In this document: positions 2,414-32,474 of the stretch, piece after piece
Position numbering within the stretch: position 1 is the stretch's first letter
Layout: each line of letters starts with the position of its first letter
Source of the DNA: a virus
Taxonomy: Duplodnaviria; Heunggongvirae; Uroviricota; Caudoviricetes
Length of the DNA: 64,000 nucleotides
IMG/VR virus record: IMGVR_UViG_3300026512_000004
Coordinates: 20,653 to 84,652 of that record
Reading direction: 5' to 3' (one strand)
Translations under genes and position numbers: made by a program
Notes under the pieces: generated by a model
Told to the model about the DNA's origin: nothing
Databases searched by the model: none
The model's input: only the letters and a program-made list of their open reading frames with translations

Positions 2414-2417
2414 CTAT

Positions 2418-3119: not shown

Positions 3120-3198
3120 GATATTTTGAGGGGTCCATTTGGACCCCGTATTAAAACTGCTATCTTAGACGCGTTATGCATAAATCTTCTCGTCTAAA

Positions 3199-4074: not shown

Positions 4075-4123
4075 TCCTTAATGACTCTAAGCTAAAGGAC
4101 ATTTAACTAGGCGGAAGTCTATA

Positions 4124-4731: not shown

Positions 4732-4790
4732 TTAATATACAAAGAGTCACTTCTAACGAATTTAAAGACTATGTAGAGGTGTAATCGACT

Positions 4791-6065: not shown

Positions 6066-6086
6066 TTTATTGTCTCAGATTGAGCT

Positions 6087-6884: not shown

Positions 6885-6916
6885 GACAATAAAACTAGTT
6901 CAAAGGAGGGTTACAA

Positions 6917-7204
6917 ATGGTAAGTGTTAGTTCTAAAGTTACCCGTGCATTAACTAGTAGACTTGGTGATGGTAGAACAGTTGATAAGAATATCTACAAT
7001 TTAGTCCATGGTACACTTAGAGAATTGCTTAATATCAAAAACAAATCAAGCGAAGATATTACTGCAGCCAAAGTAGTAATGTTACGTCATAATGGATTTA
7101 TGCTACACATTACCTGGAAAGATGGAAGTACTTCAAGAATCCCATTTGCAATTGATCTTGAAAGAGAACCCGTATCTTTTAAGTACAAATGGACTAATGC
7201 ATAG
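6917..7204 (+). CDS. hypothetical protein
   Basis: 95 aa; preceded by AAACTAGTTCAAAGGAGGG RBS motif. Confidence 0.45.
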   Translation: MVSVSSKVTRALTSRLGDGRTVDKNIYNLVHGTLRELLNIKNKSSEDITAAKVVMLRHNGFMLHITWKDGSTSRIPFAIDLEREPVSFKYKWTNA

Positions 7205-7334
7205 TTAACTATAGGTAAATCTTAAACTCAAGAAGACACTGTGGTGGCAACATTACACTCGGGGATACTGTTCTTTTTGTTCTTTTCTGTAAACGAGTTT
7301 CTGCACAACATTAAATTCGATAAAGGTGTTCATT

Positions 7335-10300: not shown

Positions 10301-10535
10301 CGGAGGATGTGTTGTACATTTGTTCGTAGGTGAGGAGATACCCAGTGTTGAAGTAGTTAAGGAGTTAGTGAAATCAATCTGTTGGAATTTTAGATTGCCA
10401 TACTTCTCTATAACACCTACATTTTCAATATGTCCAATACATGGATATATACCTGGTAAACATGAGTTTTGTCCTTATCCCCATACGGAGAAACAGTTAG
10501 CTAAATGGGGTGTTGAAGTTGAAATCGATGAGTAG
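7335..10535 (+). CDS. nrdD: anaerobic ribonucleoside-triphosphate reductase (class III, NrdD) interrupted by two inteins
   Basis: N-terminal ATP-cone (VRKRKGTIVPFDRNRIQTAIEKA). Motifs shared with the T4/E. coli NrdD sequence as recalled from memory: HVHDL...CYCNGWDL, INMPRIAYLS, EATPAESCCYRLAKID, FTGGCVVHL. Likely start is the ATG at 7335 (SD AAAGGTG); the ORF track starts at GTG 7326. Confidence 0.8.
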   Translation: MERFVRKRKGTIVPFDRNRIQTAIEKAFNATGIKDDRTVAKATDIVVDKLERDFFRYGSIPHVEQIQDIVENTLMTLGCTEVAKAYILYREKRRQIRELRDAEVDAISLIDDYLQQVDWRVRENSNMTYSLQGLNFHISSSIVARYWLHRIYPERVRLAHINGDVHVHDLNSLSCYCNGWDLYDLLLRGFGGVHGKVESKPPKHFRTALGQLVNFMYTLQGECYSADTQVLTESGWKYFWNVSINDRIYTLNPETRQIELQKPIKLYEFNYDGELYHFEGDGFDLLVTPNHNMLVCDDSRRLTFIKAHEFGHEHSILCCTNGEIDKQSYSKASIIEKVPYKGKVYCLEVPNHTLCVRRNGKICWCGNSAGAVAVSNIDTLLAPFIRYDGLNYEQVKQAIQEFIFNMNVPTRVGFQTPFTNTTHDLVPPPTLKDNAVIIGGEPQDATYGEFQEEMNMFNRAFFEVMAEGDAKGRPFSFPIPTINITRDFDFNNPNLDPLWEATRRFGTPYWANYVNSDMKPEDARSMCLAPSTCVMIKDDKDEIHVGRIYELYNKFAGCSIEVPYNGQWVPARFVKVPYKQPFYRVKLSNGISLDFTADHKHVTIDGIKLTTELQPGDCLAWSTEITPWNGQVGDFVYGYKLAKEKGCLKHWFKLSTDALVGFLTYILTENNGAYGTYDKNQALRVGYIANVFGYSYKIVRIKIRRENGEEKDFWVTRIYRNDRYVFEDKDRFGYVKIVSIEKIRNRSGKAYCFEVYTNDHLFELPCGLITHNCCRLRLDNRELRKRGGGLFASAPLTGSINVVTINMPRIAYLSHSEKDFFERLEQVMEIAKLCHEVKRKVLEDFTEKGLYPYSCVYLDTIKQRTGSYWSNHFSTIGIVGMHEACLNFLGKPIYDPEAKKWCIKVLEFMREKILEFQEETGNLYNLEATPAESCCYRLAKIDKKKYPGIITSGTEEAPYYTNSVHLPVGYTDDIFEILEHQDDLMVLFTGGCVVHLFVGEEIPSVEVVKELVKSICWNFRLPYFSITPTFSICPIHGYIPGKHEFCPYPHTEKQLAKWGVEVEIDE
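8001..8435 (+). mobile_element. mini-intein 1 inside nrdD (about 145 aa)
   Basis: Block A CYSADTQVL directly after extein YTLQGE; block B LLVTPNHNML; block F VYCLEVPNHTLCVRRNG; C-terminal boundary ambiguous (...KICWCGN/S at 8433-8435 or ...KICW/C at 8426), no canonical HN. Confidence 0.55.
8913..9650 (+). mobile_element. intein 2 inside nrdD (246 aa)
   Basis: Block A CLAPSTCVMIKDD; block B ISLDFTADHKHVT; blocks F/G YCFEVYTNDHLFELPCGLITHN followed by +1 Cys (CCRLRL); possible degenerate endonuclease insert (LVGFLTYILTENNGAYG). Confidence 0.7.
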
Positions 10536-10600
10536 TTTCATCAGGGAACACTTTGTATAATTGTTTGATACTTGTTTAAAGACAGCGGAGGTATAGATAT

Positions 10601-10759
10601 ATGTCAAAGAGACGTGTCAAATTGATACCATGCGAGGTATACAGTAGAGTGGTTGGATACTACAGACCAGTATCACATTGGAACACTGGTAAACAGCAGG
10701 AATTTAAGGAAAGGAAGACTGTGAAATTAAGCACGTATAAGAAAATCGGAGTAAGCTAG
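10601..10759 (+). CDS. stand-alone glycyl-radical domain peptide of NrdD (52 aa)
   Basis: MSKRRVKLIPCEVYSRVVGYYRPVSHWNTGKQQEFKERKTV matches the NrdD C-terminal RxxGYxxxxxxxNxGKxxExxxR glycyl-radical motif; own SD GCGGAGGT 8 nt upstream; different frame from nrdD, which stops at 10535; below the ORF-track size cut-off. Confidence 0.65.
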   Translation: MSKRRVKLIPCEVYSRVVGYYRPVSHWNTGKQQEFKERKTVKLSTYKKIGVS

Positions 10760-10772
10760 TCATGAAAATCCG

Positions 10773-10792
10773 GGTCCATCTGGGCCCGGGTA
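10773..10792 (+). other. GC-rich hairpin CCGGGTCCATCTGGGCCCGG
   Basis: Imperfect inverted repeat after the nrdD glycyl-radical ORF; related to the hairpin at 3129; no T-run. Confidence 0.3.
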
Positions 10793-10816
10793 TCATCTAG
10801 TTGCGAGGCTAAGCTT

Positions 10817-11815
10817 ATGATTACAGCTCAAGACGTTGCATGGTTTGAAAAGTACCGTCCAAACACCATAGACGATATGTTATTCGAATCCGAGGAACAA
10901 GAACGATTATGCCGTAATATAATAGAACAGGGACCTAAAGGCAACATATTACTGTACGGACCACCTGGTACGGGTAAAACTACTTTTGCACGCATAATTA
11001 TCAGAACCTTTATTAAGTCTGAACATGACATATTTAAATGCTCCAAAAGGTCAGTAACAGAGATTGACGAGGTTATAAAATGGATACCACGTGTACCTTT
11101 TCAATCCCCCTTCAAAATTGTATACATCGAGGAAATTGATAAACTCAGTAGAGAAGCACAGACAACACTTAAAGATGGTGCAATGGAACGTAACATTGTA
11201 CACACAAAGTTTATTGCTACTACTAACTGGGTGGAGAAGTTAGATGTTGCCTTAGTATCTCGTTTTGATACAAAACTACATTTCAGTGGTAAATACGATA
11301 AAGCGAAACTGAAAGTATTCCTTGGGAAGGTTCTACAGAACGAAAATGCTAAATATGATGAACAGAAACTAGAGGAGTTTATCAGTCGTCTTGGTGAAAA
11401 AGTTGACATGCGTTCCTTATTATCCAACTTGCAGATAGCGTATATTAAAGGTAATGGTAGTATCAATTTCGATGAGATACAGGCTGTAACTTGCTTAGAA
11501 GACGATGTAGTTAATTTAATACTTAAGATAGTTAAAAAAGTTAGCGATTTACCCCACAGTGATAGATACAGATGTTGTTTATATCCCATGTCATCTCCAA
11601 TAATGAATGAGTATTCTGAACTGGTAACAAGACTTAGCGAGAATCTGCAATACGAGACTATTTTCAGTGAACTGTATGACAGATTAACTTTGTTCCCATT
11701 GAAAGTCATAGTTGGTAAATACCAAAATGATATGTACAACAAACGACATTTAGACTTGCATCTGTTGGCATGTTTATACGAGTTATTAAGATGTTTGACA
11801 AGTTTGTTCGAATAA
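10817..11815 (+). CDS. clamp-loader AAA+ ATPase (RFC small subunit / T4 gp44-like)
   Basis: LLYGPPGTGKTTFAR Walker A; IVYIEEIDKLSREAQTTL RFC-box-like Walker B/sensor; VSRFD SRC-like motif. Confidence 0.7.
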   Translation: MITAQDVAWFEKYRPNTIDDMLFESEEQERLCRNIIEQGPKGNILLYGPPGTGKTTFARIIIRTFIKSEHDIFKCSKRSVTEIDEVIKWIPRVPFQSPFKIVYIEEIDKLSREAQTTLKDGAMERNIVHTKFIATTNWVEKLDVALVSRFDTKLHFSGKYDKAKLKVFLGKVLQNENAKYDEQKLEEFISRLGEKVDMRSLLSNLQIAYIKGNGSINFDEIQAVTCLEDDVVNLILKIVKKVSDLPHSDRYRCCLYPMSSPIMNEYSELVTRLSENLQYETIFSELYDRLTLFPLKVIVGKYQNDMYNKRHLDLHLLACLYELLRCLTSLFE

Positions 11816-11835
11816 TTTTGAAGTAGGTTGTTGAG

Positions 11836-12285
11836 ATGAATAATGAAGTCTTGCTTATATATTACCGTGATACTTATGCGAGGTACAACTGTTCCCATGT
11901 ATCACAAGTTGGTTTTCTGATACTAAGTGATAAGGTATATCAAATAAATCCGAATATTGTTCATGTACTTAGTAAACTTAGTCCTTTCAGCTCTGTTATA
12001 GAACCTGCTAATATAACTTATGGATACCACAACGGTGGAGATTCTTGTGCAATTAAGTTTAGACCGACTAATGTACACGATTTCGTAAAGTGGTGTCTTA
12101 GTGTAAGATCAAGTGAATTATCAACATATAAAGGTATTGCTGGCGAAACAAAGTCTTTCAAAGATTTACTGAACAAAATGTTGAAGAGTAAATTTGCCGA
12201 TTTTCACCTACAAGTATTACGTTTTGTACCAGACTTATTTGATAATCCGGATGTGAAGAAAACAATTATTAAGAGAAAATTATAA
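11836..12285 (+). CDS. hypothetical protein (clamp-loader small subunit position)
   Basis: 149 aa immediately downstream of clamp loader, as gp62 follows gp44 in T4; no motif. Confidence 0.3.
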   Translation: MNNEVLLIYYRDTYARYNCSHVSQVGFLILSDKVYQINPNIVHVLSKLSPFSSVIEPANITYGYHNGGDSCAIKFRPTNVHDFVKWCLSVRSSELSTYKGIAGETKSFKDLLNKMLKSKFADFHLQVLRFVPDLFDNPDVKKTIIKRKL

Positions 12286-12320
12286 TTTAAACACAAATCT
12301 TACCTTTCAAAGAACTGACT

Positions 12321-14069
12321 ATGGCAATTAAAGTTTTAGAAGCAATACAGCAAATCCAATTACACCCTGCAATGTGGATTGATGCTTACACACCAGAAGG
12401 TGTCATCCGTGAAGTAGTTGAAAACGCTGCCGATGAATTACTTAACCGTTATGGCGATAAGTTATATGTATATATACAGCCTTATGAAGATACTATACGA
12501 GTAACCGTTGCAGACAATGGACGTGGTATTCCTATCACTAAAGTTAAACTACCTAACAGTGATAAGGAAATTGACAGTGTCATAGCTATTTGTTGTCATT
12601 TGTTCTCTGGAGAGAAGTTCGACAAGGACACTTATCAACATTCCACGGGATTACACGGTGTTGGATTAGTTGTTGTAAATGCTTTATCACGTAAAATGAC
12701 TGTACAGGTTAAGAAAGGTGATAAATTATATCAGTACTACTTTGAAAAAGGACGTCTCATTGATAGAATTGTCGTTAGCGCAAAAGAAACTCATCCTTCT
12801 ACTCTAGTTTCTTTTATACCAGATCCCCAATACTTCGGGCAGGTGCCGCAGGAAGTAGATGCTTATGAACGCATCTACGACTTACTTAAACTGTTATCTA
12901 CTTACGGTTTCGATATCAGATTAAATGACCAGCAAATTAAATATACGTTACAGGAATTTTTGGCAGAAAAATTACCGGGCATAGAATTCACTGAATTTAA
13001 GTTTAGTACACGTGAATATACTTGTGAATATTACTTCTCTATCAGTGAAGATCCTGTAGAATATGTACACGGATACGTTAATTTACATAAATGTGGCGGT
13101 GAACACATCAAAGCGTTTAGAAGTGCTGTTGCTTCTGTTTGTAGTAAGATAACTGGATTATCTAGATACATCTTTGAACAGAGAGTACCGTTTGTTGGAT
13201 TTGTTTGGGCAAAAAGACCTAAGTTTGAATCACAGGCTAAAATTAACTTCGTAAACTCAGATTTTCAAAGTACGTTAAACAAAAAGATAGATATACTGAG
13301 TAAAGTAATTGAGAACAATTTCGGAAAAGTATTAGATGCAATAAAGGAGAAATATACCGCATCTAAATTAAGTAGACAAATTAAGAAGACAATCTCCGCT
13401 GATAACCCTTTGAAAGATTGCAGATTCCCTGATAAAGGTATATTGTATATCCTAGAGGGTGAATCTGCAGGTAGCGGATTTGCTCAGGTGAGAAATAAAG
13501 ATTATGAAGCTGTTATGATGTTAGGTGGTAAAGTTACTAACGTTTGGAAAGATCCTGATGCTGTTTTCAAGAAAGGTGGTGAAGTCAAAAAAGAATTAAA
13601 ATGGTTACTGGAGGCAGTAGGATGGACGCCTAAAGGAAAACCGAGATGGAGATATAAAGAGATTAAGATATTAACAGATCCGGATCCAGATGGTCAACAC
13701 ATCACAGTATTAGTTGTTCTGATATTGTACGAATATTGCAGACAACTGATAGAGGAAAAACGTGTTAAAATAATATTGACGCCAATCTATCTAGGCGTTA
13801 AAGGCAAGAATTATGTACCAATTTATCGGGTACAAGACAGAAATAAATTTTCCAAAGTGATAAGAATAAAGGGTCTGGCACAAATACCACCTAAAATACT
13901 GAGGGAAATATTAAATAATCCGTTAGAGTTTACGATTGGAATTCCAGAACATATTGAAGAGTTAAAAGCAATCCTACTTTCAAACGTGAAGACTGCGTTA
14001 TTGGAGAAAGAAACACTGGGGTTTATTTCCTTGTTAGAAAGTATTGTTGGTAACCGTAAAAACAGTTAG
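12321..14069 (+). CDS. type II DNA topoisomerase large subunit (GyrB-like ATPase + Toprim, T4 gp39/gp60-like)
   Basis: GHKL ATPase motifs (GLHGVGLVVVNALS, ADNGRGIP); Toprim EGESAGSG and DPDPDGQHI. Confidence 0.8.
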   Translation: MAIKVLEAIQQIQLHPAMWIDAYTPEGVIREVVENAADELLNRYGDKLYVYIQPYEDTIRVTVADNGRGIPITKVKLPNSDKEIDSVIAICCHLFSGEKFDKDTYQHSTGLHGVGLVVVNALSRKMTVQVKKGDKLYQYYFEKGRLIDRIVVSAKETHPSTLVSFIPDPQYFGQVPQEVDAYERIYDLLKLLSTYGFDIRLNDQQIKYTLQEFLAEKLPGIEFTEFKFSTREYTCEYYFSISEDPVEYVHGYVNLHKCGGEHIKAFRSAVASVCSKITGLSRYIFEQRVPFVGFVWAKRPKFESQAKINFVNSDFQSTLNKKIDILSKVIENNFGKVLDAIKEKYTASKLSRQIKKTISADNPLKDCRFPDKGILYILEGESAGSGFAQVRNKDYEAVMMLGGKVTNVWKDPDAVFKKGGEVKKELKWLLEAVGWTPKGKPRWRYKEIKILTDPDPDGQHITVLVVLILYEYCRQLIEEKRVKIILTPIYLGVKGKNYVPIYRVQDRNKFSKVIRIKGLAQIPPKILREILNNPLEFTIGIPEHIEELKAILLSNVKTALLEKETLGFISLLESIVGNRKNS

Positions 14070-14499: not shown

Positions 14500-14526
14500 G
14501 CAAACGTGTCAAGAAAGGGGGCTTAT

Positions 14527-15216
14527 ATGCAACTTGAGGATGTGGTCCAGTTTATACCTAAAACTATTCAAGGAGAGGGTAAACGTGCTGGACATATTTG
14601 CACACTTTTACGGTTCAAGAAGTGTTTACGTTCCTGTCCATTTTGCGACACCACAGAGTTAATGAAACAGGAATGTTTACCCATCACTATTGACCGGGTT
14701 GCTGATGCAGTCAAGGATACGCATATGTTATTGATAACAGGTGGTGAACCATTAATCTACTTACCACAAATAGCACTATTAGTTCAGTATATTTCAATTT
14801 CACATTCAATTAAGGTTGATTTAGAAACTGCTGGACCGAAGAACAATAAAGCAGGTAAACTCAGTCTAACACAAATACACAAGTATTTACGTATTATAAA
14901 TCAGAACACAGATTTAAATATTGTATTTAGTCCAAAAATATTTAACGATAGAGACCTATGTGAAGCGTGTGATTTTCTACGTATCATTAAAGACTTCAAA
15001 TTTACCGTAAAAGTACTTGTGCCATTTACCAGTGACCATGTGAAGTATTTCTTGTATCATTATAAGACTATGTATTCAGAAGAAAATTTATACTTTATGC
15101 CCATGGGTCAAACGAAAGAAGAACTGGAGAAGAATATACCCGCCACATTAGAAACTGTTTACGAATATGGTGGCAATTTTACGCATAGACTACATTTACT
15201 AACTAATATGCCCTAA
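14527..15216 (+). CDS. queE: 7-carboxy-7-deazaguanine synthase (QueE-like radical SAM)
   Basis: IPKTIQGEGKRAGHICTLLRFKKCLRSCPFCDT closely parallels E. coli QueE FQTLQGEG...GCPVGCAWCDT; ITGGEPL motif; ATG 14527 preferred (SD AAAGGGGG) over GTG 14506. Confidence 0.75.
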   Translation: MQLEDVVQFIPKTIQGEGKRAGHICTLLRFKKCLRSCPFCDTTELMKQECLPITIDRVADAVKDTHMLLITGGEPLIYLPQIALLVQYISISHSIKVDLETAGPKNNKAGKLSLTQIHKYLRIINQNTDLNIVFSPKIFNDRDLCEACDFLRIIKDFKFTVKVLVPFTSDHVKYFLYHYKTMYSEENLYFMPMGQTKEELEKNIPATLETVYEYGGNFTHRLHLLTNMP

Positions 15217-15217
15217 A

Positions 15218-16513
15218 ATGAAGGCTATAAAACGTAAGAAACAGTCTGCTAGAACATACGAACTTCTACGACAAGTTACACAATATCTCACACGTCCCAA
15301 TTTACGCGAACGTCTTGATAATGTATTAGCAATAAATAAAGAACTAAAATTTGTAACACATAAACGTATTTGGTTGTATTTTCTGAAACGACCACAAATT
15401 ATCAAATGGGTTAACGAGTACATTAATGACAAGTATATTCATTATCAGCCAACAGAGGCATTAAAGACAGCTGCTTTTGTATGCGATCAACATAGACTAA
15501 CAAGCAACGATTTACATTATGCTCGCACACCAGAAATAGATGACACGATAGAAGAATTAAGACTACAGTTGACATCCGGACTTGAACTGAGGAACTCCTC
15601 TGATTTTTCAACGTTACAGTATTTACTCAATAATGTTGTCAAAGTTAAAACATTAGAGGAATTTATACAAGAAATACTACAAGATGTGGAAAATTGCAGG
15701 TCTAAATGTCCACTTGGCCAATTACAACGTCCCGTTGTTGTGTTAGATGGCAATATTGAATATGTTGGACCTGTAGATGTGATGTTTATTGGCTTGAATC
15801 CTGGTACTGAAGAGGCTAAACAGGGTAAACCGTTTGTTGGTCTTACCGGTATTAAACTGCGTGAATTTGTGGAAAATAACTTAGGTCATTTGAAGTACAT
15901 TTTTACTAATTGTATCTTGTGTTCTACAAGGAATGAAAGCGAAATCCCGGAGATACAGAAAGTAATAACACTATGTAGACAACATGTTACTAAGATTGTC
16001 CAAACATTTCAACCAAAGATAATCGTATTAGTTGGCGATAAAGCGTGTTCATCTTTTGGTATCACTGGTAAAATAAGTCAGATATCTGGAACTCTTATTA
16101 ATGATAAATACTTTCCATTGATACACCCTTCTGCTGTATCTAGGAACCCTCATTGGAAAGATTTGTGGGAAAGAAGTCTGGATAACTTGTTAATGGTTTT
16201 GGGTATTGAGAAAAAGAACAAGGTAGAGATTAAAGGCGGCAGTACAGTTACTTGGGATGATGTACGTGAAATGCAGTTAACCTTGTTCGACCTAAAGATA
16301 TTAGAAGGTCAAACTGCTATTTACATATTCTTGGATAACGAGGGTAAAAAGTATTACTTAGTTGAAGAACCGAAGCACAGGATATATATTAAGCGTGGTG
16401 AATTGCCGTTTCTAGCCTTAGTTGAAGATGAGTTCGATCAGTATGTTGATTTAACACCACGAGAGAAACATTTTCTTGTTGCCGAACTAAGAAAACGTAT
16501 TGCGCAGATTTGA
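15218..16513 (+). CDS. UDG-superfamily (family-4-like, Fe-S) domain protein with N- and C-terminal extensions
   Basis: Residues about 160-330 align motif by motif with family-4 UDGs. Fe-S Cys motifs: CRSKCPL, NCILC, LCRQH, ACSSF. Motif A: VMFIGLNPGTEEAKQGKPFVGLTGIKL, versus GEGPGeeEdxxGrPFvGkaG. Motif B: FPLIHPSAVSRNP. The catalytic-motif residue is Asn (GLNPG), as in MUG/TDG. The start overlaps the queE stop. Confidence 0.7.
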   Translation: MKAIKRKKQSARTYELLRQVTQYLTRPNLRERLDNVLAINKELKFVTHKRIWLYFLKRPQIIKWVNEYINDKYIHYQPTEALKTAAFVCDQHRLTSNDLHYARTPEIDDTIEELRLQLTSGLELRNSSDFSTLQYLLNNVVKVKTLEEFIQEILQDVENCRSKCPLGQLQRPVVVLDGNIEYVGPVDVMFIGLNPGTEEAKQGKPFVGLTGIKLREFVENNLGHLKYIFTNCILCSTRNESEIPEIQKVITLCRQHVTKIVQTFQPKIIVLVGDKACSSFGITGKISQISGTLINDKYFPLIHPSAVSRNPHWKDLWERSLDNLLMVLGIEKKNKVEIKGGSTVTWDDVREMQLTLFDLKILEGQTAIYIFLDNEGKKYYLVEEPKHRIYIKRGELPFLALVEDEFDQYVDLTPREKHFLVAELRKRIAQI

Positions 16514-17291
16514 GAATATGCTTACACGTATTCTTGAACGATACAGTCAACTAGATTTATCTGAAAGTATACGAGACAGAATTCAGTGGTATTTAGGTGA
16601 TGAACGGGATCAAATTGTCACCGCCTTGGACGTCGTCGAAGTGGATATGAAACAGGCATTTCTGCATTTAATTAAGTTAGATCCTAATTTAAGTCGAAAA
16701 TACGCAAAACATATTCCACGTTGGGAACAATTGGATAAACAAGCTCGTAACATTGAAATTGGTAAAACATTGTCTAGTGATGATGTACAATATCTGAATT
16801 TTCTATCCAAAGTATCTGTATTGACTTATATCGATATAGTTTTTGAACATTACACACTATTGGAACTGAAAAAAGACGGTGCATTAGTAGTAGCGGAAAA
16901 GAGGGAGAAGTTGTTACATCACCCGCTTTGTGACCAATTAGAGTTCAGATGTACCGTTTACGACTTCTACACTAGAATTTACAAAACGAGTTACTATTGG
17001 AATGGTGAACTAATTATCAAAGGACAGTATAAAGGATTACCAATAGGTTTACGGAAGTTGTTAGTGTGGTTTCTTAAGGATAAGCAAGATAAGGTGTTAG
17101 AAACAGCAAGACGAGTTTACCATATTGAATTCATGAGAAAGTATAAAGACCAGGTTGCAAAGTGGTACATGTTTGAGAACGGTAAAGTGTTAGATATAAC
17201 AGGTAAATTAGGAGACAAATGTCATCCCTTAGCATACACCATATGGATATTCAATCCAGTAATTACTGAAATTGTAAAAGCGGGGGTGTAA
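16500..17291 (+). CDS. hypothetical protein
   Basis: 263 aa ORF overlapping upstream stop. Confidence 0.45.
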   Translation: MRRFENMLTRILERYSQLDLSESIRDRIQWYLGDERDQIVTALDVVEVDMKQAFLHLIKLDPNLSRKYAKHIPRWEQLDKQARNIEIGKTLSSDDVQYLNFLSKVSVLTYIDIVFEHYTLLELKKDGALVVAEKREKLLHHPLCDQLEFRCTVYDFYTRIYKTSYYWNGELIIKGQYKGLPIGLRKLLVWFLKDKQDKVLETARRVYHIEFMRKYKDQVAKWYMFENGKVLDITGKLGDKCHPLAYTIWIFNPVITEIVKAGV

Positions 17292-17294
17292 ACA

Positions 17295-17570
17295 ATGCAA
17301 ACTTTAAACGGACCACAACAAATCAAGATTGACATTTCACAACTTGAAGATGTTAAATGTAAAAGATGTGGTGGCACTCTATTTGTACCAGTATTTCTAA
17401 TTAAACGTATATCACCTTTGTTGTCACCTACAGGACGTGAGGAGTTTATTACAATACCAGCTAGTTTAGCATGTTTACGTTGTGGAGAAGTATTACATGT
17501 GGACCCGAATAGCCAAGAAGGATCTGGACAAACTGTTGATACGTCATCCACGGTTGGAAAAGCTGATTAA
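17295..17570 (+). CDS. zinc-ribbon protein
   Basis: CKRCGG...CLRCGE two CxxC pairs. Confidence 0.4.
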   Translation: MQTLNGPQQIKIDISQLEDVKCKRCGGTLFVPVFLIKRISPLLSPTGREEFITIPASLACLRCGEVLHVDPNSQEGSGQTVDTSSTVGKAD

Positions 17571-18876
17571 TGATATCATCTTGATAGAAACATCTGAGTA
17601 CTATTATTTACCAAGACTTCTTTACAAGAAATATCCAGAAGTAGAATTAATTTGTAACAAACAGTTTACACCCAGAAGAATAGAAGTTGAGTTTAAAGGA
17701 CAATTACGTCCTGAACAAACTAATATTATCAGTCAGATTCTAGAACATTGGAAAACTAGTGATACACCAGGTGGTATCATAGAGGCGCCTCCTGGTACTG
17801 GTAAGACGGTTCTAGGTGTTTATCTAACGTGCATAACTAAATTGGCGACAATGGTTATTGTAGATAATCGTAAAATTGCAGATCAGTGGATTAATGAATA
17901 TCTTAAATTCAGTAATGTAAGTGAAAAAGATATTGACATTGTCAAACGCAAAGAACCAACACCAGGCAAAAAAGTGTATATAGCTTATGTGCAGACGCTG
18001 TTATCACGTATGAAAAAAGACATACGTAATATACGTGAATCAGTTAAACGTTGTGGTATTGGTTTAGTTCTCTACGACGAAGTTCATAGAATTGCTACCG
18101 GACAAAGATATGCTAAAGTGTCGGTCCTTTTTGACACGCCTTTGTTAATTGGCTTATCTGCCACTCCTTTCAGTCATGGTGTTCATGAATTTCTAATGTA
18201 CAATACTATAGGACCTGTGATAGCTAGTGGTGGTGAAATGATGCCTTGTCTTTTGAGACGTATTTTCTATAACTCTGGGTTATCTCAGTACGCTTCATCT
18301 ATACTGTCTATGGGTGACGAAACAAGAAGAAAAGCAAAGTATAACTCATTGATAACTCATTCTGATACGTGTAAACTCGTTATACGAGATCAGGTGGAAA
18401 AGCTCCTGAAAGAAGGTCGACAAGTTTTCGTAGTGGTTTTGACGGTTGACCATGCTGAAAGTTTAGCATCTTTTCTGCGTTCGAGTTTAGGAGTTCGTAC
18501 TGCTGCTTTACACCGTAAAAATCCAAATGTAACAGTTGATGACAAAGTAATAGTCAGCACTTACAAAATGGGATCACATGGGTTCAATATGCCAACATTA
18601 TCTGCAGCAATAATACCAATACTACTGGCAGGTAAAGTTAGTCTGAAACAAAGTATTGGTCGTATTGTTAGAAGATTACCTGGTAAACAGCAGCCTATTG
18701 TTGTTGATTTAGAAGATATGGATTTTCAGAATGTATTTAGGAAGCAGTTGATAGCAAAGAAAAATGTGTTGAAAACGTATTTACCTATCAAAAAATATGA
18801 GTTTTTAAAGGCGATTGTTGATGTCCAGAAACAAAAAGTGTGGTACACGAACATTAACACTTCCAACAGTTTTTGA
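17482..18876 (+). CDS. SF2 DNA/RNA helicase (DExH-box)
   Basis: Motif I APPGTGKT, motif II LYDEVH, motif III SAT; C-terminal RecA-like domain. Confidence 0.7.
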   Translation: MEKYYMWTRIAKKDLDKLLIRHPRLEKLINDIILIETSEYYYLPRLLYKKYPEVELICNKQFTPRRIEVEFKGQLRPEQTNIISQILEHWKTSDTPGGIIEAPPGTGKTVLGVYLTCITKLATMVIVDNRKIADQWINEYLKFSNVSEKDIDIVKRKEPTPGKKVYIAYVQTLLSRMKKDIRNIRESVKRCGIGLVLYDEVHRIATGQRYAKVSVLFDTPLLIGLSATPFSHGVHEFLMYNTIGPVIASGGEMMPCLLRRIFYNSGLSQYASSILSMGDETRRKAKYNSLITHSDTCKLVIRDQVEKLLKEGRQVFVVVLTVDHAESLASFLRSSLGVRTAALHRKNPNVTVDDKVIVSTYKMGSHGFNMPTLSAAIIPILLAGKVSLKQSIGRIVRRLPGKQQPIVVDLEDMDFQNVFRKQLIAKKNVLKTYLPIKKYEFLKAIVDVQKQKVWYTNINTSNSF

Positions 18877-21395: not shown

Positions 21396-21567
21396 GTTAG
21401 AAGAACCTCTACAGATAATCGATGTACTGAAACAATGTATTTGTGAACTTACAAATAGTATTAAACAAATACAAGAGATGTGTACTATGTTATCCGATAA
21501 AGTGAGTAAGCTTGAAACTCGTGTAAAAAGGTTAGAAAAAAGCAAGAAGAAAAATGGCAAAAATTAA
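21379..21567 (+). CDS. small coiled-coil protein
   Basis: 62 aa, heptad-like K/E-rich; may be spurious. Confidence 0.25.
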   Translation: MEKKIKLEEPLQIIDVLKQCICELTNSIKQIQEMCTMLSDKVSKLETRVKRLEKSKKKNGKN

Positions 21568-22336
21568 CGTCGTTCTATCAGGTAGTGGTGCTAATTTTAC
21601 GGTACACATCGGCGCCTTATACGCATTAACTAAAGAATTAGCATTCGATATAAATTCTATTACGTGTGTATCTGGTGGCGCGTTAATTGGTGGATTAGTT
21701 GCGGCCGGAATTTCATTGGAAGATTTGCTAGACGCAGTATTGCGTGTAGACTTACGGGAATTAATACAACCTGTGCCCTGGTGGAAACGTTTATTTGTTA
21801 AACACTTCTATGAGACGAACAAAGTTGCCGAGTACTTAAAATACTTAACAGGTAACTGTTCAATTAAAGAGTGTAAATACGATATAGCTATTGTAACCAC
21901 TGATTACATGAAATGTGATAGGAAAATCTTTACGAAAAACGATGATATAGAATTGTGGCGTGCTATACTTGCGTCTATGTCAGTGCCTATACTATTTCCA
22001 CCGGTAAAATGGCAGGGATATATTCTAAGAGACGGTGCAGTTGTAAACAATATGCCTATTGACATTGCTACTGAATTATTCGGAGAACCTGTTATTGGTA
22101 TAAAAGTAGTACCGCCGAAAACATACATAAAACCTGGTAGTTGGAAGTTTGAACTGATAAGTCTTATTGATAGTTTTATGACGGCTTTAGACAGAGAACA
22201 TATGGAGGAAAACGCGGACAAAGTAGTGTTCGTTAAGTGCGGTTGGCAAAGTTTTAACTTCGATATACCTATTGAAGTTAGAAGAGCACAGTTTGAGGCA
22301 GGTAGACAAGCTGTACTGCGCTACTATAATAAGTAA
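21554..22336 (+). CDS. patatin-like phospholipase
   Basis: VVLSGSGANFTVHIGALYA (oxyanion Gly-rich), GxSxG serine motif CVSGGAL, conserved D in DGAVVNN (catalytic dyad). Confidence 0.65.
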   Translation: MAKINVVLSGSGANFTVHIGALYALTKELAFDINSITCVSGGALIGGLVAAGISLEDLLDAVLRVDLRELIQPVPWWKRLFVKHFYETNKVAEYLKYLTGNCSIKECKYDIAIVTTDYMKCDRKIFTKNDDIELWRAILASMSVPILFPPVKWQGYILRDGAVVNNMPIDIATELFGEPVIGIKVVPPKTYIKPGSWKFELISLIDSFMTALDREHMEENADKVVFVKCGWQSFNFDIPIEVRRAQFEAGRQAVLRYYNK

Positions 22337-22826
22337 AAAGCAAGCTTCGGGTTGGGTTGTGTTGGAAACTGTGTTTGGTCGCAATAACTTCGAAAGATTT
22401 ACAATGACATACGCAACGTACAAATGGTTACACGGTGAACCTGAAGAACGTGCGTTTTTGATAGGTTTGGCGGCTGCTACAATGTTAGCTGCGCTGAAGG
22501 GTCGTACTGGTAGAAGGGCGAATAAGAAACAGAAAGTCAGTAGTACTGTAGCACTAACAAATAGTAATTGTAGGTTAATTGATGATTTCTGTGTGGGTAT
22601 TTATGAATGCGAAGATAAAATTGGTTGGGGTCATAACCCGTTTCACCCTGTTAAGCCAAATCATCTACTCTACGAACAATGGTTAAGATGGCGTGATAAC
22701 CTTGCAGTGTACTTGCGTAAAACCGGATTAGGACCTTATGAGTTTTACAAGATATATTTGAGAACTTGGCCGTCTAAACCGGTCACTTGGGAAGAGATTG
22801 AAAGTAGATTGATTCACATTGTATAA
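22272..22826 (+). CDS. hypothetical protein
   Basis: 184 aa; real start possibly at internal Met (22401). Confidence 0.35.
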   Translation: MKLEEHSLRQVDKLYCATIISKKQASGWVVLETVFGRNNFERFTMTYATYKWLHGEPEERAFLIGLAAATMLAALKGRTGRRANKKQKVSSTVALTNSNCRLIDDFCVGIYECEDKIGWGHNPFHPVKPNHLLYEQWLRWRDNLAVYLRKTGLGPYEFYKIYLRTWPSKPVTWEEIESRLIHIV

Positions 22827-22839
22827 GAAAAGGTAAGTC

Positions 22840-22878
22840 CAGACGGGGTTTTGCGGAGCCCCGTCTGTTTTTCTTTTG
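22840..22878 (+). terminator. rho-independent terminator
   Basis: CAGACGGGG-TTTTGCGGAG-CCCCGTCTG followed by TTTTTCTTTTG. Confidence 0.7.
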
Positions 22879-22907
22879 CAGTCCAAAAGTTCAATAGATA
22901 TTAACAA

Positions 22908-23777
22908 TTGGTCATGAACATACCAGCAGACTTTTACACACGAGTCGAAGATCCACGCTTTCTACATTATGTTCTATACGGTGATACTGACAGTTTGTTT
23001 TTGCATGTACCTTTTGTACACTACGAAACGACTAAAGAAGCAATTGAGAAAGCACAAAAAATCGCAAAGCAAATTAACGACAGAATCCAAGCGTACTTAA
23101 ATGTTGAAATGCTACCTAAAATGGGTGTCGACCCTAAATATAATTTTACTGACTTTAAAACAGAGCTAGTAATTAAGTCGTTAATGCTTCTCGAGGTCAA
23201 GAAAAATTATGCATTGAAAATAATTGCTGAAAAAGACGAGGTATTTTCTAGTCCAAAGATTAAGTACACGGGATTACCTATTGTTAAAGCAGATGTTGCT
23301 GCCTTAGCTAAACAATTCTTAAAAGAACTTGTAGACAACATTGTCTTAAATGAAGAAATCCCTCTGGAACAGAAACTGGATCATTGTGAACGTATACGTG
23401 AAGTGTATAAAAAACGTACAAAAGAAGCGTGCGATAACTTCCAAATACACCTAATAGGCAAACCTGCTAAGATGTCTAATACGGAAAGTAATGCTCATCA
23501 CATACAGGCAATGAAACGTTGGAACACGTGGTGGAGTAATGACTTCAAGTTAGGTACATCTGGTTATTTAGTGTACACAGATAGAGGTGAACTTGCGGTA
23601 CCATTTTGGTATGACGAACACATGGTCAAGAGAGCATTTGAAAAAATGCAACTGAAACTCGATATTAATGCTATTTGGAACAAATTTATCTACATCACGA
23701 TTACACAACGTATTATCAAACTATGTGCAAAATATTGCCAAGATCCGCTAAAACGTGTAAACTATGACGTACAATGA
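22908..23777 (+). CDS. family-B DNA polymerase, C-terminal fragment (palm motif C + thumb)
   Basis: YGDTDSLFL (motif C) 24 aa from N-terminus, KKNYALK (KKRY motif), GLPIVKAD; begins right after a terminator; TTG 22908 or ATG 22914. Confidence 0.8.
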   Translation: MVMNIPADFYTRVEDPRFLHYVLYGDTDSLFLHVPFVHYETTKEAIEKAQKIAKQINDRIQAYLNVEMLPKMGVDPKYNFTDFKTELVIKSLMLLEVKKNYALKIIAEKDEVFSSPKIKYTGLPIVKADVAALAKQFLKELVDNIVLNEEIPLEQKLDHCERIREVYKKRTKEACDNFQIHLIGKPAKMSNTESNAHHIQAMKRWNTWWSNDFKLGTSGYLVYTDRGELAVPFWYDEHMVKRAFEKMQLKLDINAIWNKFIYITITQRIIKLCAKYCQDPLKRVNYDVQ

Positions 23778-25707
23778 GTTAATACGTGAGATACGTGAAG
23801 GTCGATTAAACTACTACAATATCTACAACGCAATTTCAACACACACTTACTTAACCACAAAGTACTATAACGAATTCACACATGATACAATCGATAAACC
23901 ACAAAAAGTATCTGTTTTGTATTTAGATATTGAGGTTTATATACCAAGTAAAAACAGAAGCCCTGATCCGCAAAAAGATCCTATTTGTGCTTTCTCTATT
24001 GTCTACGAAAGAAACGCCTATCTTTTTGGATTAATACCACCTGGTAAAGCACGTGAAGAATTACCTAGTAAAGAAGAGTTGGAAGAGTTAGTCGCAAGAC
24101 ATGTTGGTAAAAAGTATAGTATAGAGGTAAGATACTACGATAATGACGCAGATTTACTAAAAGGTGTTTGGCGAAAGATACGTGAATTAGACCCCTGTTT
24201 GTTGAGTGGATGGAACATAGACGGATTTGACATACCTTATATTATTGAAAGGATGCAAGTGTTATTACCAAATGAATGGCAGCGGGTAATTTCACGTTTT
24301 GGACGTGTCACTAAAGAACAGGGATATTGGCAGATTCCAGAATATTCACGATATGACTTATATTACTTCTACAAGCCTAGAGATGAAGGTGGTATGAATT
24401 ATGGATCAAAAGAACCGAGTTACACTTTAGATTTCATTGCTAGTAAACTGCTTAATGTTACTAAAGTTCACCATGAAACTGACTTACATACAATGTTTGA
24501 AGAGAAGACACGCGAGTTATTTGTCTATAACGTAGTGGATACTATCCTCTGCCAAATGTTAGATGAAAAGCTCAAATTTTGGGATTTGCACAATACAGTA
24601 AGACGTAAAATGGGTGTAGGATTTTCGGCATCATTACGTGGTTGGTCTGTTATGTATGAGGCTTATGTGATTAAAACATTGAAAGACAAGAAAATTAGAT
24701 TTGGTTATCTGGAAGAACTAGATTTTGAAGTCGACCAGTATAGTAAACAAGATGTGAGAAAAGTAACGCGTCGATATATGGGTGCTTACGTCAAAGAACC
24801 TCGTGAGGGTATTTATATTGATGGATTATTGATGGATTTAGATGCTTCACGTCTATATCCGTCTATGATTATGCAGTTTAACATATCGTTTGATACTTTG
24901 TACGGCATAATTATAGATCCTGTATGTTATAACGCAATGACTTCTCTAAGTCAAATGATGAACTCTACTGGTGAAAGAAGACAACAAATTGCTGCGAAAA
25001 TTAAACTAGCTATTGAGAAGACATTTGAACAGATTTTCGGAACCACTTCAAAAGGCAAAACCTCTTACCGTAAGGAAGATCGTGCTTTTCTGACAGTTAT
25101 TTCTGCTATTGTGGATAGACTCTGTGAGAGTGGATTATCGTTTCAAGAAATATGCACACCTACAACACCAAAAGGTTATGTGTATTTGAGGCGATACTTT
25201 ATACCACTTTTAGATATGATTAAGTATGTAAAATATAGTACTCTTGAGTATAATACATTCGCATACGATTACGTATTCGATGAACCTAAGGTGAACAGCG
25301 TATACGTTCTTATTAACTGTGATAGTAAACCGCTAAAAATAGACAAATGGAGCGTCGAATATCTGAAGAAAAGGTTGGACGAAGACTTAGTTTTAACATG
25401 TACTGGTTGTTTGTTTTATAAACATGACGTTAAACGCGGATTGTTCTTCGAGTTCTTACAAGAATTGGGGAAAATGCGTAAAGATTTCGAAAGGAAAGCA
25501 TTACAAGTCGACGACGAAGAACTTAAAAACATATACAGAAGAAATGCAAAAACGTGTAAGGTTATTATGAACACGTGTTACGGGTTGTACGGACTACCAA
25601 CGTTTACATTTTCTAATCAGTGGTTAGCGTCTACAATTACATTACAAGGTAGAATAAGTGTTAAATTAGCACAGTTAATTGCGGATCAAGTTATCAGTGA
25701 ACTATGA
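23764..25707 (+). CDS. family-B DNA polymerase, N-terminal fragment (3'-5' exonuclease + palm motifs A/B)
   Basis: Exo I VLYLDIEV, Exo II SGWNIDGFDIPYI, Exo III YNVVDT; motif A DLDASRLYPSMIM; motif B KVIMNTCYGLYG...TITLQGR; ORF ends about 20 aa after motif B; overlaps upstream ORF by 14 nt. Confidence 0.85.
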   Translation: MTYNELIREIREGRLNYYNIYNAISTHTYLTTKYYNEFTHDTIDKPQKVSVLYLDIEVYIPSKNRSPDPQKDPICAFSIVYERNAYLFGLIPPGKAREELPSKEELEELVARHVGKKYSIEVRYYDNDADLLKGVWRKIRELDPCLLSGWNIDGFDIPYIIERMQVLLPNEWQRVISRFGRVTKEQGYWQIPEYSRYDLYYFYKPRDEGGMNYGSKEPSYTLDFIASKLLNVTKVHHETDLHTMFEEKTRELFVYNVVDTILCQMLDEKLKFWDLHNTVRRKMGVGFSASLRGWSVMYEAYVIKTLKDKKIRFGYLEELDFEVDQYSKQDVRKVTRRYMGAYVKEPREGIYIDGLLMDLDASRLYPSMIMQFNISFDTLYGIIIDPVCYNAMTSLSQMMNSTGERRQQIAAKIKLAIEKTFEQIFGTTSKGKTSYRKEDRAFLTVISAIVDRLCESGLSFQEICTPTTPKGYVYLRRYFIPLLDMIKYVKYSTLEYNTFAYDYVFDEPKVNSVYVLINCDSKPLKIDKWSVEYLKKRLDEDLVLTCTGCLFYKHDVKRGLFFEFLQELGKMRKDFERKALQVDDEELKNIYRRNAKTCKVIMNTCYGLYGLPTFTFSNQWLASTITLQGRISVKLAQLIADQVISEL

Positions 25708-26723
25708 GCATGGAACATTCAACGATTAATACACGACCAAATGATATAATAACTTGTTCTCAAGAATCGTGTGTAGACTTTTTGTACGCTTCATATGTTC
25801 ACAGATACGGATTATCTTGTGCGTACGATTATGCTATATACAAGTTGAAAGTAGATGAGTTCTTACGCGGTTTAGGTAGTTGTGTAAAAATGATATACGT
25901 GGGTTTCAAATACGGTTTTGGTATTGTTGATGTACATAATGTTGTATTTGGCGTAGTATGGTCATCTCGTGGTATTTCTTTATATGCTCAATCATCTGCC
26001 GAGGTTAATCGCGTCCTAGAAATACTACACCCTTATTTGGAGACAGTTCGTGATAATGTCGTTGTATTTAAAGTCTGGTCTTATGCGCAGGGATTATCTT
26101 ATGAACACATAGACGTTACAACTGATGAATTACTTATGAATATAGATGTAAATTTGTTTAAATATGCTGGGGCGGATGTAGATGACTTACTGAATTTCTT
26201 CAAGTCCAGGGAATCACTGTTATTAATAACAGGCATACCTGGTACGGGTAAAAGCAAACTTTGTGCAGCACTGATTGCGTTAGCGAGACAACAAGGATTA
26301 ATTGGTGATTATATAGAATTTGTCAAAGGACGCGAAGTTATTAAAGCCTTATTGTCGCATCCGGACAACTTCTTGAAGCCAAAAATTTGGTTGTTCGACG
26401 ATCTAGACGTAATTAGTGGTGAATTTAGTAGGGATACTTCAGATGAACTTGCACAGGACTTCATATCCATGCTGTTGACAATGAGTGACGGTGTCATACC
26501 CCAAAAATCTAAATTTATCGTAACAACAAATATACCGTTGAAAGCAATTGATGAAGCATTGTTACGACCTGGTCGTTTGTACGAATCCGTCGAGTTGAAA
26601 AAGTTCAATGCGAGAAATGCTGGGTTAGATATTGATAAAGAAGTTACTTTGGCAGAATTTATGGCATTACGCGAAAAACAACGTATTGATAGACATCGTC
26701 CAACTAGGAAGATTGGATTTTAG
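25704..26723 (+). CDS. P-loop ATPase (DnaC/IstB-like AAA+ candidate)
   Basis: LLITGIPGTGKSKLCAALIALA Walker A; IWLFDDLDVISG Walker B (DDLG-like); 170-aa N-terminal extension. Confidence 0.45.
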   Translation: MSMEHSTINTRPNDIITCSQESCVDFLYASYVHRYGLSCAYDYAIYKLKVDEFLRGLGSCVKMIYVGFKYGFGIVDVHNVVFGVVWSSRGISLYAQSSAEVNRVLEILHPYLETVRDNVVVFKVWSYAQGLSYEHIDVTTDELLMNIDVNLFKYAGADVDDLLNFFKSRESLLLITGIPGTGKSKLCAALIALARQQGLIGDYIEFVKGREVIKALLSHPDNFLKPKIWLFDDLDVISGEFSRDTSDELAQDFISMLLTMSDGVIPQKSKFIVTTNIPLKAIDEALLRPGRLYESVELKKFNARNAGLDIDKEVTLAEFMALREKQRIDRHRPTRKIGF

Positions 26724-26787
26724 CTCTTAATCATTAAGGTAATAGCACACAGTATCACTTAAAAGACTCTTCTAAGGAGGTTGTAAT

Positions 26788-27540
26788 ATGGAGAAAGTAC
26801 GTTGCGGAAAATGTGGTAGATATGTTCCTAAGAGTTCTTGTCTTCCGTATCGGACTAAAAGAGGCAAATATGCAGGCAGACCTAGTTGGATCTGTTTTGA
26901 GTGTTACATTACATGCGAAGATGATATAGAACTTCTGACACCAGATTGGAATAAGATACAAAATAAGATACAAGAACTTATAGATATTTTACATGAAGAA
27001 TTAGGTTGGTTTAATAGTGAAGAATTAAAAAATACCGCTAGAAGAATTGCTAATTTCTACAAAGAATGGGCAAGTAATCAATCGTTTAAGTTTACCACGT
27101 TTGAACGTGATTTAGTTGAAAGTAAATTAGACCAGCTAATAGTATATCGGGATATCAAGTTCTTTAGTATGTGTAGTCATCATATGTTGCCATTCTATGG
27201 TGTTTGTCATGTTGCTTACTTACCCCGTGACGAAGTTGCTGGAGCATCTAAAATTGCCAGAATGGTAGTTGCTAAAGCCAGTAAACCACAAATACAGGAA
27301 AAACTGACAGATGAGATTTGTAGAGAATTGTTCGATACACTTAAAGCTAAGTTCGTTATGGTAGTAATGGAGGCGACACATTTATGTATGGTTTGTAGAG
27401 GGATAAAACAGTATGGCAGTAAGATGGTAACATCTTCTATTAGATACGATAAAGAAGCACAGGAGTCAGGTGAGATAGATTGGAAAACCTTGAAAGAGGA
27501 AAGTTTAATTTTGTTCAGGGGATTGAGACAAGACTTTTAA
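26788..27540 (+). CDS. folE: GTP cyclohydrolase I (FolE) with N-terminal Cys4 zinc-ribbon extension
   Basis: FFSMCSHHMLPFYGVCHVAYLPRDEVAGASKIARMV...QIQEKLTDEI matches FolE CEHHLVPF...GLSKLARIV...QVQERLT; N-terminal CGKCGR...CFEC. Confidence 0.8.
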   Translation: MEKVRCGKCGRYVPKSSCLPYRTKRGKYAGRPSWICFECYITCEDDIELLTPDWNKIQNKIQELIDILHEELGWFNSEELKNTARRIANFYKEWASNQSFKFTTFERDLVESKLDQLIVYRDIKFFSMCSHHMLPFYGVCHVAYLPRDEVAGASKIARMVVAKASKPQIQEKLTDEICRELFDTLKAKFVMVVMEATHLCMVCRGIKQYGSKMVTSSIRYDKEAQESGEIDWKTLKEESLILFRGLRQDF

Positions 27541-31532: not shown

Positions 31533-32474
31533 ATGAGTAGTCTAAATGAACGATTTCACATTAAATCGATACTGAAAATTTTCTGTATAATATCTGTGTT
31601 AATAATAATGGCCACAGGATGTGTACGCGTAATCGAATCAGGTAAAACAGGTATCCGTGTTATACTAGGTAAATACAGTAAGAACGAATTAAACCCAGGT
31701 ATCCATCCCTGGATACCTATCATCTACGACATAAAAATAGTTGATACACGTGTTCATACTATCAACTATAAAGAAGTACCCGACAATAAAGGTCATGGTG
31801 TTATCAATCACAAACCAATTACTGTGTTAGATCAACGTGGTTTGCCCATCCAGGTGGAACTAACTGTTCAATATCGATTAGTACCTGATCATGCATCCGA
31901 AATGTTACAAGAATGGGGCGATAATTGGGAAGAGAAGTTAATTAATCCTATTTGTCGTGAAGTTATCAGAGATGTAATCGGTACTTACCCTGCAGAAATA
32001 ATACCCACTAAAAGACCTGAAATTGCTGCGAGAATTCAAAAAGATATAACCAGGAAAGTACAAGAACAGTCCAAAGGCGCTGTCCAAGTAATTGGTGTAC
32101 AGTTGAGAAACGTACATTTGCCACCCGAAATTGAAAAGAAAATTAAGGATGTACAGTTAGCTAAACAAGAGGCACAAAGAATGAAATATGTTGAAGAACA
32201 AGCTAAAAGACGTCAAGAAGTTAAAAGAATAGAGGCTGAAACTAAGAAAATTCAGAAAGTAATTGCAGCTCAAGCTGAAGCTGAAGCAACTCTGAAAAGA
32301 GCAGAAGCGATCGCTGAAGCGAATAGAAAACTGGCACAGACTATTACACCTAACTTGTTAAAGTGGAAAGAGTTAGAAGTACAGAAACAAATCGCAGAAA
32401 GTCTTGAGAAGAATCCGAATGTTAAATTGTTCTTAAACACACCTGCTGGAAATTTTTCACATGTGGTTAGATAG
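31533..32474 (+). CDS. SPFH/band-7 (stomatin/prohibitin/HflKC-like) membrane protein
   Basis: N-terminal TM (ILKIFCIISVLIIMATG), SPFH-like core, C-terminal Ala/Glu coiled coil (AQAEAEATLKRAEAIAEANRKLAQ). Confidence 0.65.
   Translation: MSSLNERFHIKSILKIFCIISVLIIMATGCVRVIESGKTGIRVILGKYSKNELNPGIHPWIPIIYDIKIVDTRVHTINYKEVPDNKGHGVINHKPITVLDQRGLPIQVELTVQYRLVPDHASEMLQEWGDNWEEKLINPICREVIRDVIGTYPAEIIPTKRPEIAARIQKDITRKVQEQSKGAVQVIGVQLRNVHLPPEIEKKIKDVQLAKQEAQRMKYVEEQAKRRQEVKRIEAETKKIQKVIAAQAEAEATLKRAEAIAEANRKLAQTITPNLLKWKELEVQKQIAESLEKNPNVKLFLNTPAGNFSHVVR

Follow-up and report, generated by a model that had tools for sequence, protein, structure and literature searches.

How does a phage make its replicative DNA polymerase when the gene is cut in two and the halves are encoded back to front? 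This question is raised by a 64,000-nucleotide stretch of a caudoviricete genome (positions 20,653 to 84,652 of the IMG/VR record IMGVR_UViG_3300026512_000004; hereafter the window, numbered from its own first letter), in which the gene for the C-terminal part of a family-B DNA polymerase (PolB) lies directly 5′ of the gene for the N-terminal part. We propose that the replicative, T4 gp43-type PolB of this uncultivated myovirus is very probably a complex of two separately translated subunits whose genes stand in reversed order. The upstream gene, polB-C (22914..23777; all window features given here lie on the plus strand), encodes 287 amino acids comprising the palm's second half, in which motif C and KKNYA lie, and the thumb. 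The downstream gene, polB-N (23764..25707), encodes 647 amino acids comprising the N-terminal domain, the 3′-5′ exonuclease, palm motif A and the fingers motif B. The two overlap by 14 nucleotides (23764..23777), which hold the end of polB-C, with its TGA, and the ATG of polB-N. A sequence-only reading of the window had described this same arrangement of gene positions, strand and overlap, and we find it to be correct.

That reading had also regarded the pair as one complete PolB, and profile searches agree. Exo I (DIEV, 23926-23937), Exo II (NIDGFDIPY, 24214-24240), Exo III (YNVVD, 24526-24540), motif A (DLDASRLYPS, 24835-24864) and motif B (KVIMNTCYG, 25558-25584) were all located exactly within polB-N, whereas motif C (YGDTDS, 22977-22994) and the KKxY motif (KKNYA, 23199-23213) are found in polB-C, so that the canonical motifs are all intact across the gene pair. 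The product of polB-N matches the exonuclease family PF03104 (E = 6e-16) and covers positions 93-197 of 453 of PF00136 and 98-555 of 856 of phrog_262, while the open reading frame (ORF) at 22908-23777 covers positions 220-413 and 572-740 of the same two profiles; the coverage is therefore complementary and without overlap. Furthermore, family alignments show DTD and KK.Y to be invariant in the C gene, and DIE, FD, Y...D, D.D...YPS and K...N..YG in the N gene. Two details of the earlier description need adjustment. The upstream ORF does carry motif C, KKxY and the thumb, but its start is likely to be ATG 22914 rather than TTG 22908 (which would give 289 amino acids), because gene callers chose ATG 22914 (P0001) and the homologues all start at the corresponding place. 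Likewise, polB-N does stop soon after motif B, but the distance given as about 20 amino acids is 40 when counted from the last motif B residue (G607) and 16 when counted from the end of the TITLQGR stretch.

Where, then, is the polymerase broken? The profile of N homologues ends opposite residue 607 of RB69 gp43, and position 16 of the C-homologue profile aligns to residue 614, with motif C falling at residues 614-636 and KKxY and the palm/thumb boundary at 705-769. By profile alignment, the break is inside the palm, at about RB69 residues 607-613, with the helix after motif B on one side and the β-strand of motif C on the other. The entire fingers domain, including motif B, is encoded by polB-N, which ends opposite RB69 residue 607-612 or so, and polB-C starts 21 amino acids before motif C. 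That the upstream ORF corresponds to the C-terminal region of a PolB, as had been claimed, is upheld by the Pfam and PHROG matches, by the RB69 gp43 profile search and by structure: Foldseek searches with the AlphaFold model of the C-fragment returned family-B polymerases in all of the top 20 places, with RB69 gp43 first at a probability of 1.00. In that model, the thumb (residues 125-275) reaches a predicted local distance difference test score (pLDDT) of about 75-95, and the palm pieces are poorly modelled, which is expected of half a domain in isolation.

An obvious concern is that the reversed order reflects an assembly artefact, in which a chimeric join, or a repeat that was collapsed or rotated, placed the 3′ part of polB before the 5′ part. 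The source is indeed a metagenome contig, and one related locus (L206) contains a suspicious, 100% identical 5-kb tandem repeat of its C and N genes, so the region can misassemble. Nevertheless, an independent Logan assembly of run SRR7968125 (L120) has a junction identical to that of the window, and all family members start and stop at one break point with proper start and stop codons. Above all, a search of related phages for the same order found the C gene ahead of the N gene, with both on one strand, in 10 of the 10 diverged lineages in which both genes are visible, from various samples and assemblers, with a spacing from -14 nucleotides to 13.7 kb; among these lineages, the N-before-C order was not found in the clade. 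Specifically, C precedes N by -14 nucleotides in the window and L120, by +3 in L204, by +6 in L005 and L006, by +8 in L121 to L123 (where a 317-amino-acid ORF was recognised as the C-fragment by hhalign, E = 7e-61) and by 250 nucleotides in L206, and the distance grows to 0.5 kb in L112, 1.6 kb in L109, 7.5 kb in L004, 9.5 kb in L008 and 13.7 kb in L007 together with L106 (IMG/VR contig 3300044712_000810). The worry about an assembly error raised with the sequence-only reading is effectively refuted by the L120 junction and by these lineages, and we regard an artefact as having a negligible chance of being the explanation.

The same comparison bears on the history of the layout. Lineages with adjacent genes are mutually only 30-38% identical and scattered over a star-like tree, the same upstream synteny recurs (topoisomerase II, a UDG-like protein, a helicase and then C), and the genes inserted between C and N vary among relatives. 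For these reasons, the adjacent state is probably ancestral, with separation by inserted genes having come later, and we infer that the reversed layout, far from being a one-off, goes back to the ancestor of a large uncultivated clade. As an observation apart, the repeat in L206 consists of a 5.0-kb block (C gene, a 62-amino-acid ORF and N gene) at 2066-7130 and again at 8360-13424, with a period of 6294 bp, and it adjoins an IS605 TnpB/Cas12f-like gene. Either the whole split polymerase was duplicated very recently, or the repeat is an artefact of assembly.

How widespread is the split form? Of the 12 close homologues of polB-C, every one is a stand-alone protein (287-311 amino acids), and the 10 closest homologues of the N gene have 677-716 amino acids and stop after motif B. 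An exhaustive hmmsearch over 1.84 billion cluster representatives (clusters at 50% identity) yielded 1462 matches; at least 107 representative clusters match the C profile at E ≤ 1e-30, and essentially all of these are stand-alone C-fragments, either plain (about 280-350 amino acids) or with an intein inside motif C (37 with the HN|(T/S/C)DS junction). Contiguous PolBs come in only from about 1e-28 and group as a single separate clade in the neighbour-joining tree; such trees are star-like and, at the deepest level, compatible with either a split or a contiguous ancestor. Among 50,697 phage records, no match was found by megablast with positions 22000-27000 or by tblastn with the C-fragments of the window, P0005 and P0241, and tblastn with the N gene reached only T4-like gp43, at about 27% identity. 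Because no member is detectable in these deposited genomes, the clade appears to be known solely from metagenomes, with no cultured relative found. A single-protein scan of viral contigs gave nothing, and alignment-based scans gave the relatives described here; some of the clade's contigs reach 255-315 kb. Scanning 185,579 species genomes produced weak cellular Pol II-type matches only and no clue to the host, and no tRNA genes were found in the window.

The breadth of this distribution also bears on whether the two ORFs are functional at all. They could be decaying remnants, pseudogene pieces in a phage whose DNA is copied by another polymerase, encoded elsewhere in its genome or by the host, and the fact that only 64 kb of a 122-kb contig is seen leaves room for such an enzyme. 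The catalytic motifs, however, are intact and invariant across the family, and both genes are under purifying selection, with ratios of nonsynonymous to synonymous substitutions (dN/dS) of 0.1-0.27 (0.21 for C and 0.11-0.27 for N). The split form also persists in the clusters counted above, and the genes sit within the conserved replication module that runs from topoisomerase II to C and N. A full-length polB elsewhere, the other concern attached to the sequence-only reading, was not found within the window: tblastn and six-frame scans with hidden Markov models revealed no second polB-like sequence there, and no other polymerase was found among its large ORFs. Decay of this kind is, in our opinion, very improbable.

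Could the two genes instead yield a single chain? One possibility is recoding, in which a +1 frameshift or stop readthrough at the 14-nucleotide overlap would produce a fused C-N protein, that is, a circularly permuted polymerase. The overlap of the genes in the window is compatible with this idea, and in L005 the two genes share a frame and are parted only by a stop codon and two codons. On the other hand, the frame of N relative to C is not conserved, being +1 in the window, 0 in L005 and +2 in L121; the overlap itself, ACTATGACGTACAATGA, lacks a slippery site; other ORFs part the two genes in seven lineages (including L206, at 250 nucleotides) over distances of 0.25-13.7 kb; and a fused C-N protein is absent from the best 150 representatives. 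Recoding in this direction therefore merits very little credence, and the earlier argument that neither frameshifting nor readthrough could restore the normal N-to-C order stands.

The other route to a single chain is trans-splicing, in which split-intein halves at the break would ligate the products into a normal N-to-C polymerase. Such systems exist in the PolB of Nanoarchaeum equitans, the PolB of Aeromonas phage Aes123 and cyanobacterial DnaE. Inteins are abundant in the family, where many C genes have one in motif C and some N genes one in motif A, and the window itself carries one in its anaerobic ribonucleotide reductase. Even so, the 40 amino acids after motif B and the 21 before motif C make up a normal linker, so that intein halves of about 100 and 35 amino acids would not fit, and neither ORF has a Pfam intein match. 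Moreover, the inteins of the relatives are complete cis-inteins located inside motif C, 20 residues from the break. We consider trans-splicing at this junction barely conceivable.

With trans-splicing and conserved recoding ruled out, and given the purifying selection and the invariant catalytic residues, a two-subunit enzyme is the reading that we favour. It is well established for RB69 gp43 that metal-binding carboxylates are contributed by both motif A and motif C, and the strand that follows residue 614 carries D621 and D623. Since the corresponding carboxylates lie on different subunits here, the active site would have to be composite: the large subunit would supply the motif A aspartate and the small subunit the motif C aspartates. 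According to this proposal, a single transcription unit beginning after an upstream terminator would carry C, N and an AAA+ ATPase gene; translation of C and N would be chained through the 14-nucleotide overlap, and that of the AAA+ gene through a 4-nucleotide overlap. The 287- and 647-amino-acid polypeptides would then associate non-covalently. Polymerase activity should require both subunits, while the large subunit alone would keep a complete exonuclease domain, and the C-before-N order would have been inherited from the common ancestor of the large clade. There is precedent for active PolBs made of two chains, namely Mth PolB, the T4-like 43A/43B polymerases and an engineered split Pfu enzyme (PMC3061061).

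The layout of the operon can be read in some detail. The intrinsic terminator upstream of polB-C (22840..22877) consists of a hairpin, CAGACGGGG-TTTTGCGGAG-CCCCGTCTG, followed by TTTTTCTTTT; its stem (22840-22867) has 12 bp, 7 of them G-C pairs, and the hairpin and T-run end 36 nucleotides 5′ of ATG 22914. The strong terminator that had been noted before the C gene is indeed the strongest among the only three terminator-like sites in 9 kb; the preceding transcription unit ends there, and polB-C opens a new one. Downstream, the ATG of the AAA+ gene (25704..26723, 339 amino acids) overlaps the stop codon of polB-N (ATGA). No Shine-Dalgarno sequence was found at the start of either polB-C or polB-N; this absence, together with the start/stop overlaps between C and N and between N and AAA+, suggests that translation of the three genes may be coupled within one post-terminator transcript, the AAA+ gene being the predicted third cistron of the same coupled operon. 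A scan for sigma-70 promoters performed no better than with shuffled sequence (34 sites versus 33 expected). The AAA+ ATPase has no similarity to the 345-amino-acid ORF at the equivalent position in L121 and is not conserved in the relatives.

Several points weigh against the two-subunit proposal or limit its reach. The polB-C gene is without a recognisable ribosome-binding site or promoter. The AlphaFold model of concatenated N and C is poor (predicted template modelling score 0.38, palm pLDDT below 50) and uninformative on the interface. The search for a second polymerase covered 64 kb of the 122-kb source contig, and its negative outcome holds for that part; the count of gene orders leaves out L002, L009, L107, L108, L205 and L207, in which the partner gene lies beyond the 8-10 kb read. 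Finally, although the evidence supports two polypeptides, as the sequence-only reading had concluded, it is by inference that the two proteins would bind each other and polymerise DNA through a composite site, that their translation would be coupled and that a route to their order is proposed.

Why would such an order be maintained? Rather than being a frozen accident, it might have been selected, with the small subunit being made first, from a start of its own after the terminator, and capturing the nascent C-terminal end of the large subunit in an ordered co-translational assembly of the composite site, or with the supply of the small subunit switching the large one between a stand-alone proofreading exonuclease and a polymerase. 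This is a speculative idea that we think unlikely to be right. If it were true, the clade would offer a natural example of a replicase whose activity is governed by the stoichiometry of its subunits, and it would represent a living intermediate toward a circularly permuted polymerase.

Split family-B polymerases are not new in themselves, and several known systems invite comparison. According to two accounts that summarise Petrov and Karam (PMC3061061, PMC2677866), gp43 is bicistronic (43A/43B) in the T4-related phages 133, 44RR, 31, 25 and 65, with the split in the fingertip of the fingers domain, the N-to-C order kept and the cistrons 2 bp to 3 kb apart, at times with a homing endonuclease gene between them; the two products are made separately and reassemble. 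As in those phages, a gp43-type PolB is encoded by two cistrons in a myovirus with a T4-like replication module. Unlike in them, the break in the window lies in the palm, between motifs B and C, the order is reversed and the identity to T4-like gp43 is about 27%. The earlier remark that split T4-like gp43 genes retain the N-to-C order is borne out by the literature (PMC3061061). Because both break site and gene order differ, we rejected an assignment to the fingertip split.

Another comparison is with PolB3 of the Methanobacteriales, that is, PolB1/PolB2 of M. thermautotrophicus (Kelman et al. 1999, via PMC3061061 and PMC4104785), a cellular enzyme of archaea for which two-subunit activity was demonstrated biochemically; it is described as broken in the palm with no intein at the break, its split is put down to erratic intein excision, and its genes are about 85 kb apart, hence with neither a defined order nor an operon. 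A secondary source (PMC3061061) places that break about 83 amino acids after Pfu residue 467, whereas the break here falls in the palm about 20 amino acids before motif C, so the two sites may or may not coincide to the residue. Both systems have a large subunit bearing the exonuclease and the first polymerase motifs, and a small C-terminal one. In contrast to the archaeal genes, those of the window are adjacent in a phage operon, and their best sequence and structure matches are to RB69 and T4 gp43. Assignment to the archaeal split was rejected, as the lineage differs and the archaeal genes are dispersed.

The window ORFs are also without intein halves, unlike the split-intein polymerases of N. 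equitans (PolB), Aes123 (PolB1) and cyanobacteria (DnaE). They resemble circular permutants (Bliven and Prlic 2012, PMC3320104) in that the C part is encoded before the N part, and the adjacent C-N state is the intermediate predicted by both the duplication and the fission/fusion models (PMC3320104). They differ from circular permutants in being separate genes, with a stop codon and different frames, and in many relatives kilobases apart. Having neither intein halves nor a fused chain, the pair could be assigned neither to the split-intein systems nor to the circular permutants. Rhodothermus phage RM378 has, according to PMC3061061, a PolB in two pieces with the break between the N-terminal/exonuclease region and the palm, which the window does not resemble. 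Among the proteins that we collected, P0232 (745 amino acids) does: it starts just before motif A and is contiguous through motifs B and C and the thumb, a polymerase-domain-only gene. This implies that an RM378-type split between exonuclease and polymerase probably occurs within the same broad family.

What could have broken the gene, and what could have reversed it? Some indications come from a distant group of loci (L010, L012, L024, L026 and L032; for instance, L010 8037-10891, L026 7205-10873 and L032 7596-10858), in which PolB is broken at the same motif B|C junction in the conventional N-to-C order. There, about 48 amino acids separate the motif B lysine from the end of the N ORF, the C ORF has 8-15 amino acids ahead of YGDTDS, and scores against the C profile are about 54 bits, versus 260-460 bits within the clade of the window. 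A GIY-YIG homing endonuclease gene sits exactly in the N-C gap of L032, and the gap of L026 holds a 351-amino-acid ORF with repeated zinc-ribbon-like modules. The layout of L032 is that of the fractured genes described by Dassa et al. (2009, PMC2677866), with a free-standing homing endonuclease between gene halves, whereas the halves in the window overlap by 14 nucleotides and have no endonuclease gene at the junction. Because the distant group breaks at the same junction and L032 has the GIY-YIG gene in its gap, the motif B|C junction appears to be a recurrent, tolerated break point, and it is plausible that endonuclease invasion caused the fission. The reversal could have followed through tandem duplication and reciprocal loss, each intermediate keeping a working enzyme, in line with the published permutation-by-duplication scheme (PMC3320104), or through relocation of one half after fission, for example by homing-endonuclease fracture. 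No duplication intermediate was found, and neither flanking ORF (22272-22826 or 25704-26723) showed any similarity to the polB profiles, as a vestige of a duplication might.

In other respects, too, mobile elements concentrate in this PolB lineage. Both genes of L112 (3369-10861) contain an intein, that of the C gene being of the LAGLIDADG type and located in motif C, and an HNH endonuclease gene cuts the L112 N gene into three or more ORFs; the polymerase is further broken in L109 (6957-12526) too, and in L110 (9998-12888) the N gene consists of two ORFs about 700 nucleotides apart. Inteins are also found beyond the polymerase. The anaerobic ribonucleotide reductase NrdD of the window (7326-10535, 1069 amino acids, with an N-terminal ATP-cone) has one at about residues 550-775 (PF14890, E = 9e-14), which shows protein-splicing elements to be active in this genome. 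A topoisomerase IV/gyrase A-like subunit in L121 (1-85, the gene crossing the locus end; 973 amino acids) likewise contains an intein and would add to the clade's intein-rich replication genes.

To our knowledge, the natural split family-B polymerases described so far all have their genes either in N-to-C order or dispersed. Searching the literature for a split PolB in permuted or reversed order gave nothing of relevance, and the major surveys of PolB diversity and phage polymerases that we searched do not mention a reversed split; it thus seems that the reversed-order, palm-broken form is without a prior description, even though split PolBs are already known. The case matters in that an essential replicase would be encoded back to front in one operon, with the order conserved in a deeply diverged, wholly uncultivated clade. 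It offers a natural test case for the relation between gene order and the assembly of a two-chain active site, as well as a natural intermediate for both textbook routes to circular permutation, and the tolerance of PolB to a break at the palm B|C junction may be relevant to split-polymerase engineering. There is also a practical side: C-fragments of about 300 amino acids are mostly labelled hypothetical or left nameless in public data, so the polymerase may be recorded as truncated in genomes of this clade.

Some neighbouring genes deserve mention. GTP cyclohydrolase I (FolE, 26788-27540) is encoded beyond the AAA+ gene, as the second gene after polB-N, with two radical-SAM genes nearby (14506-15216 and 1751-2413); in addition, QueC and GCHY-1 (FolE2) adjoin the polB pieces in the relatives L002, L121, L206 and L207. 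These genes suggest that a 7-deazaguanine DNA-modification pathway may be linked to the replication module. The window also encodes a patatin-like phospholipase (21554-22336) and an SPFH/Band-7 protein (31533-32474), which are unusual cargo for the early/replication block of a myovirus. Finally, on the 96-kb contig of the relative L204, a gene for a protein with Ro60/TROVE and vWA domains (16372-17943) follows the split polymerase at a distance of about 4 kb.

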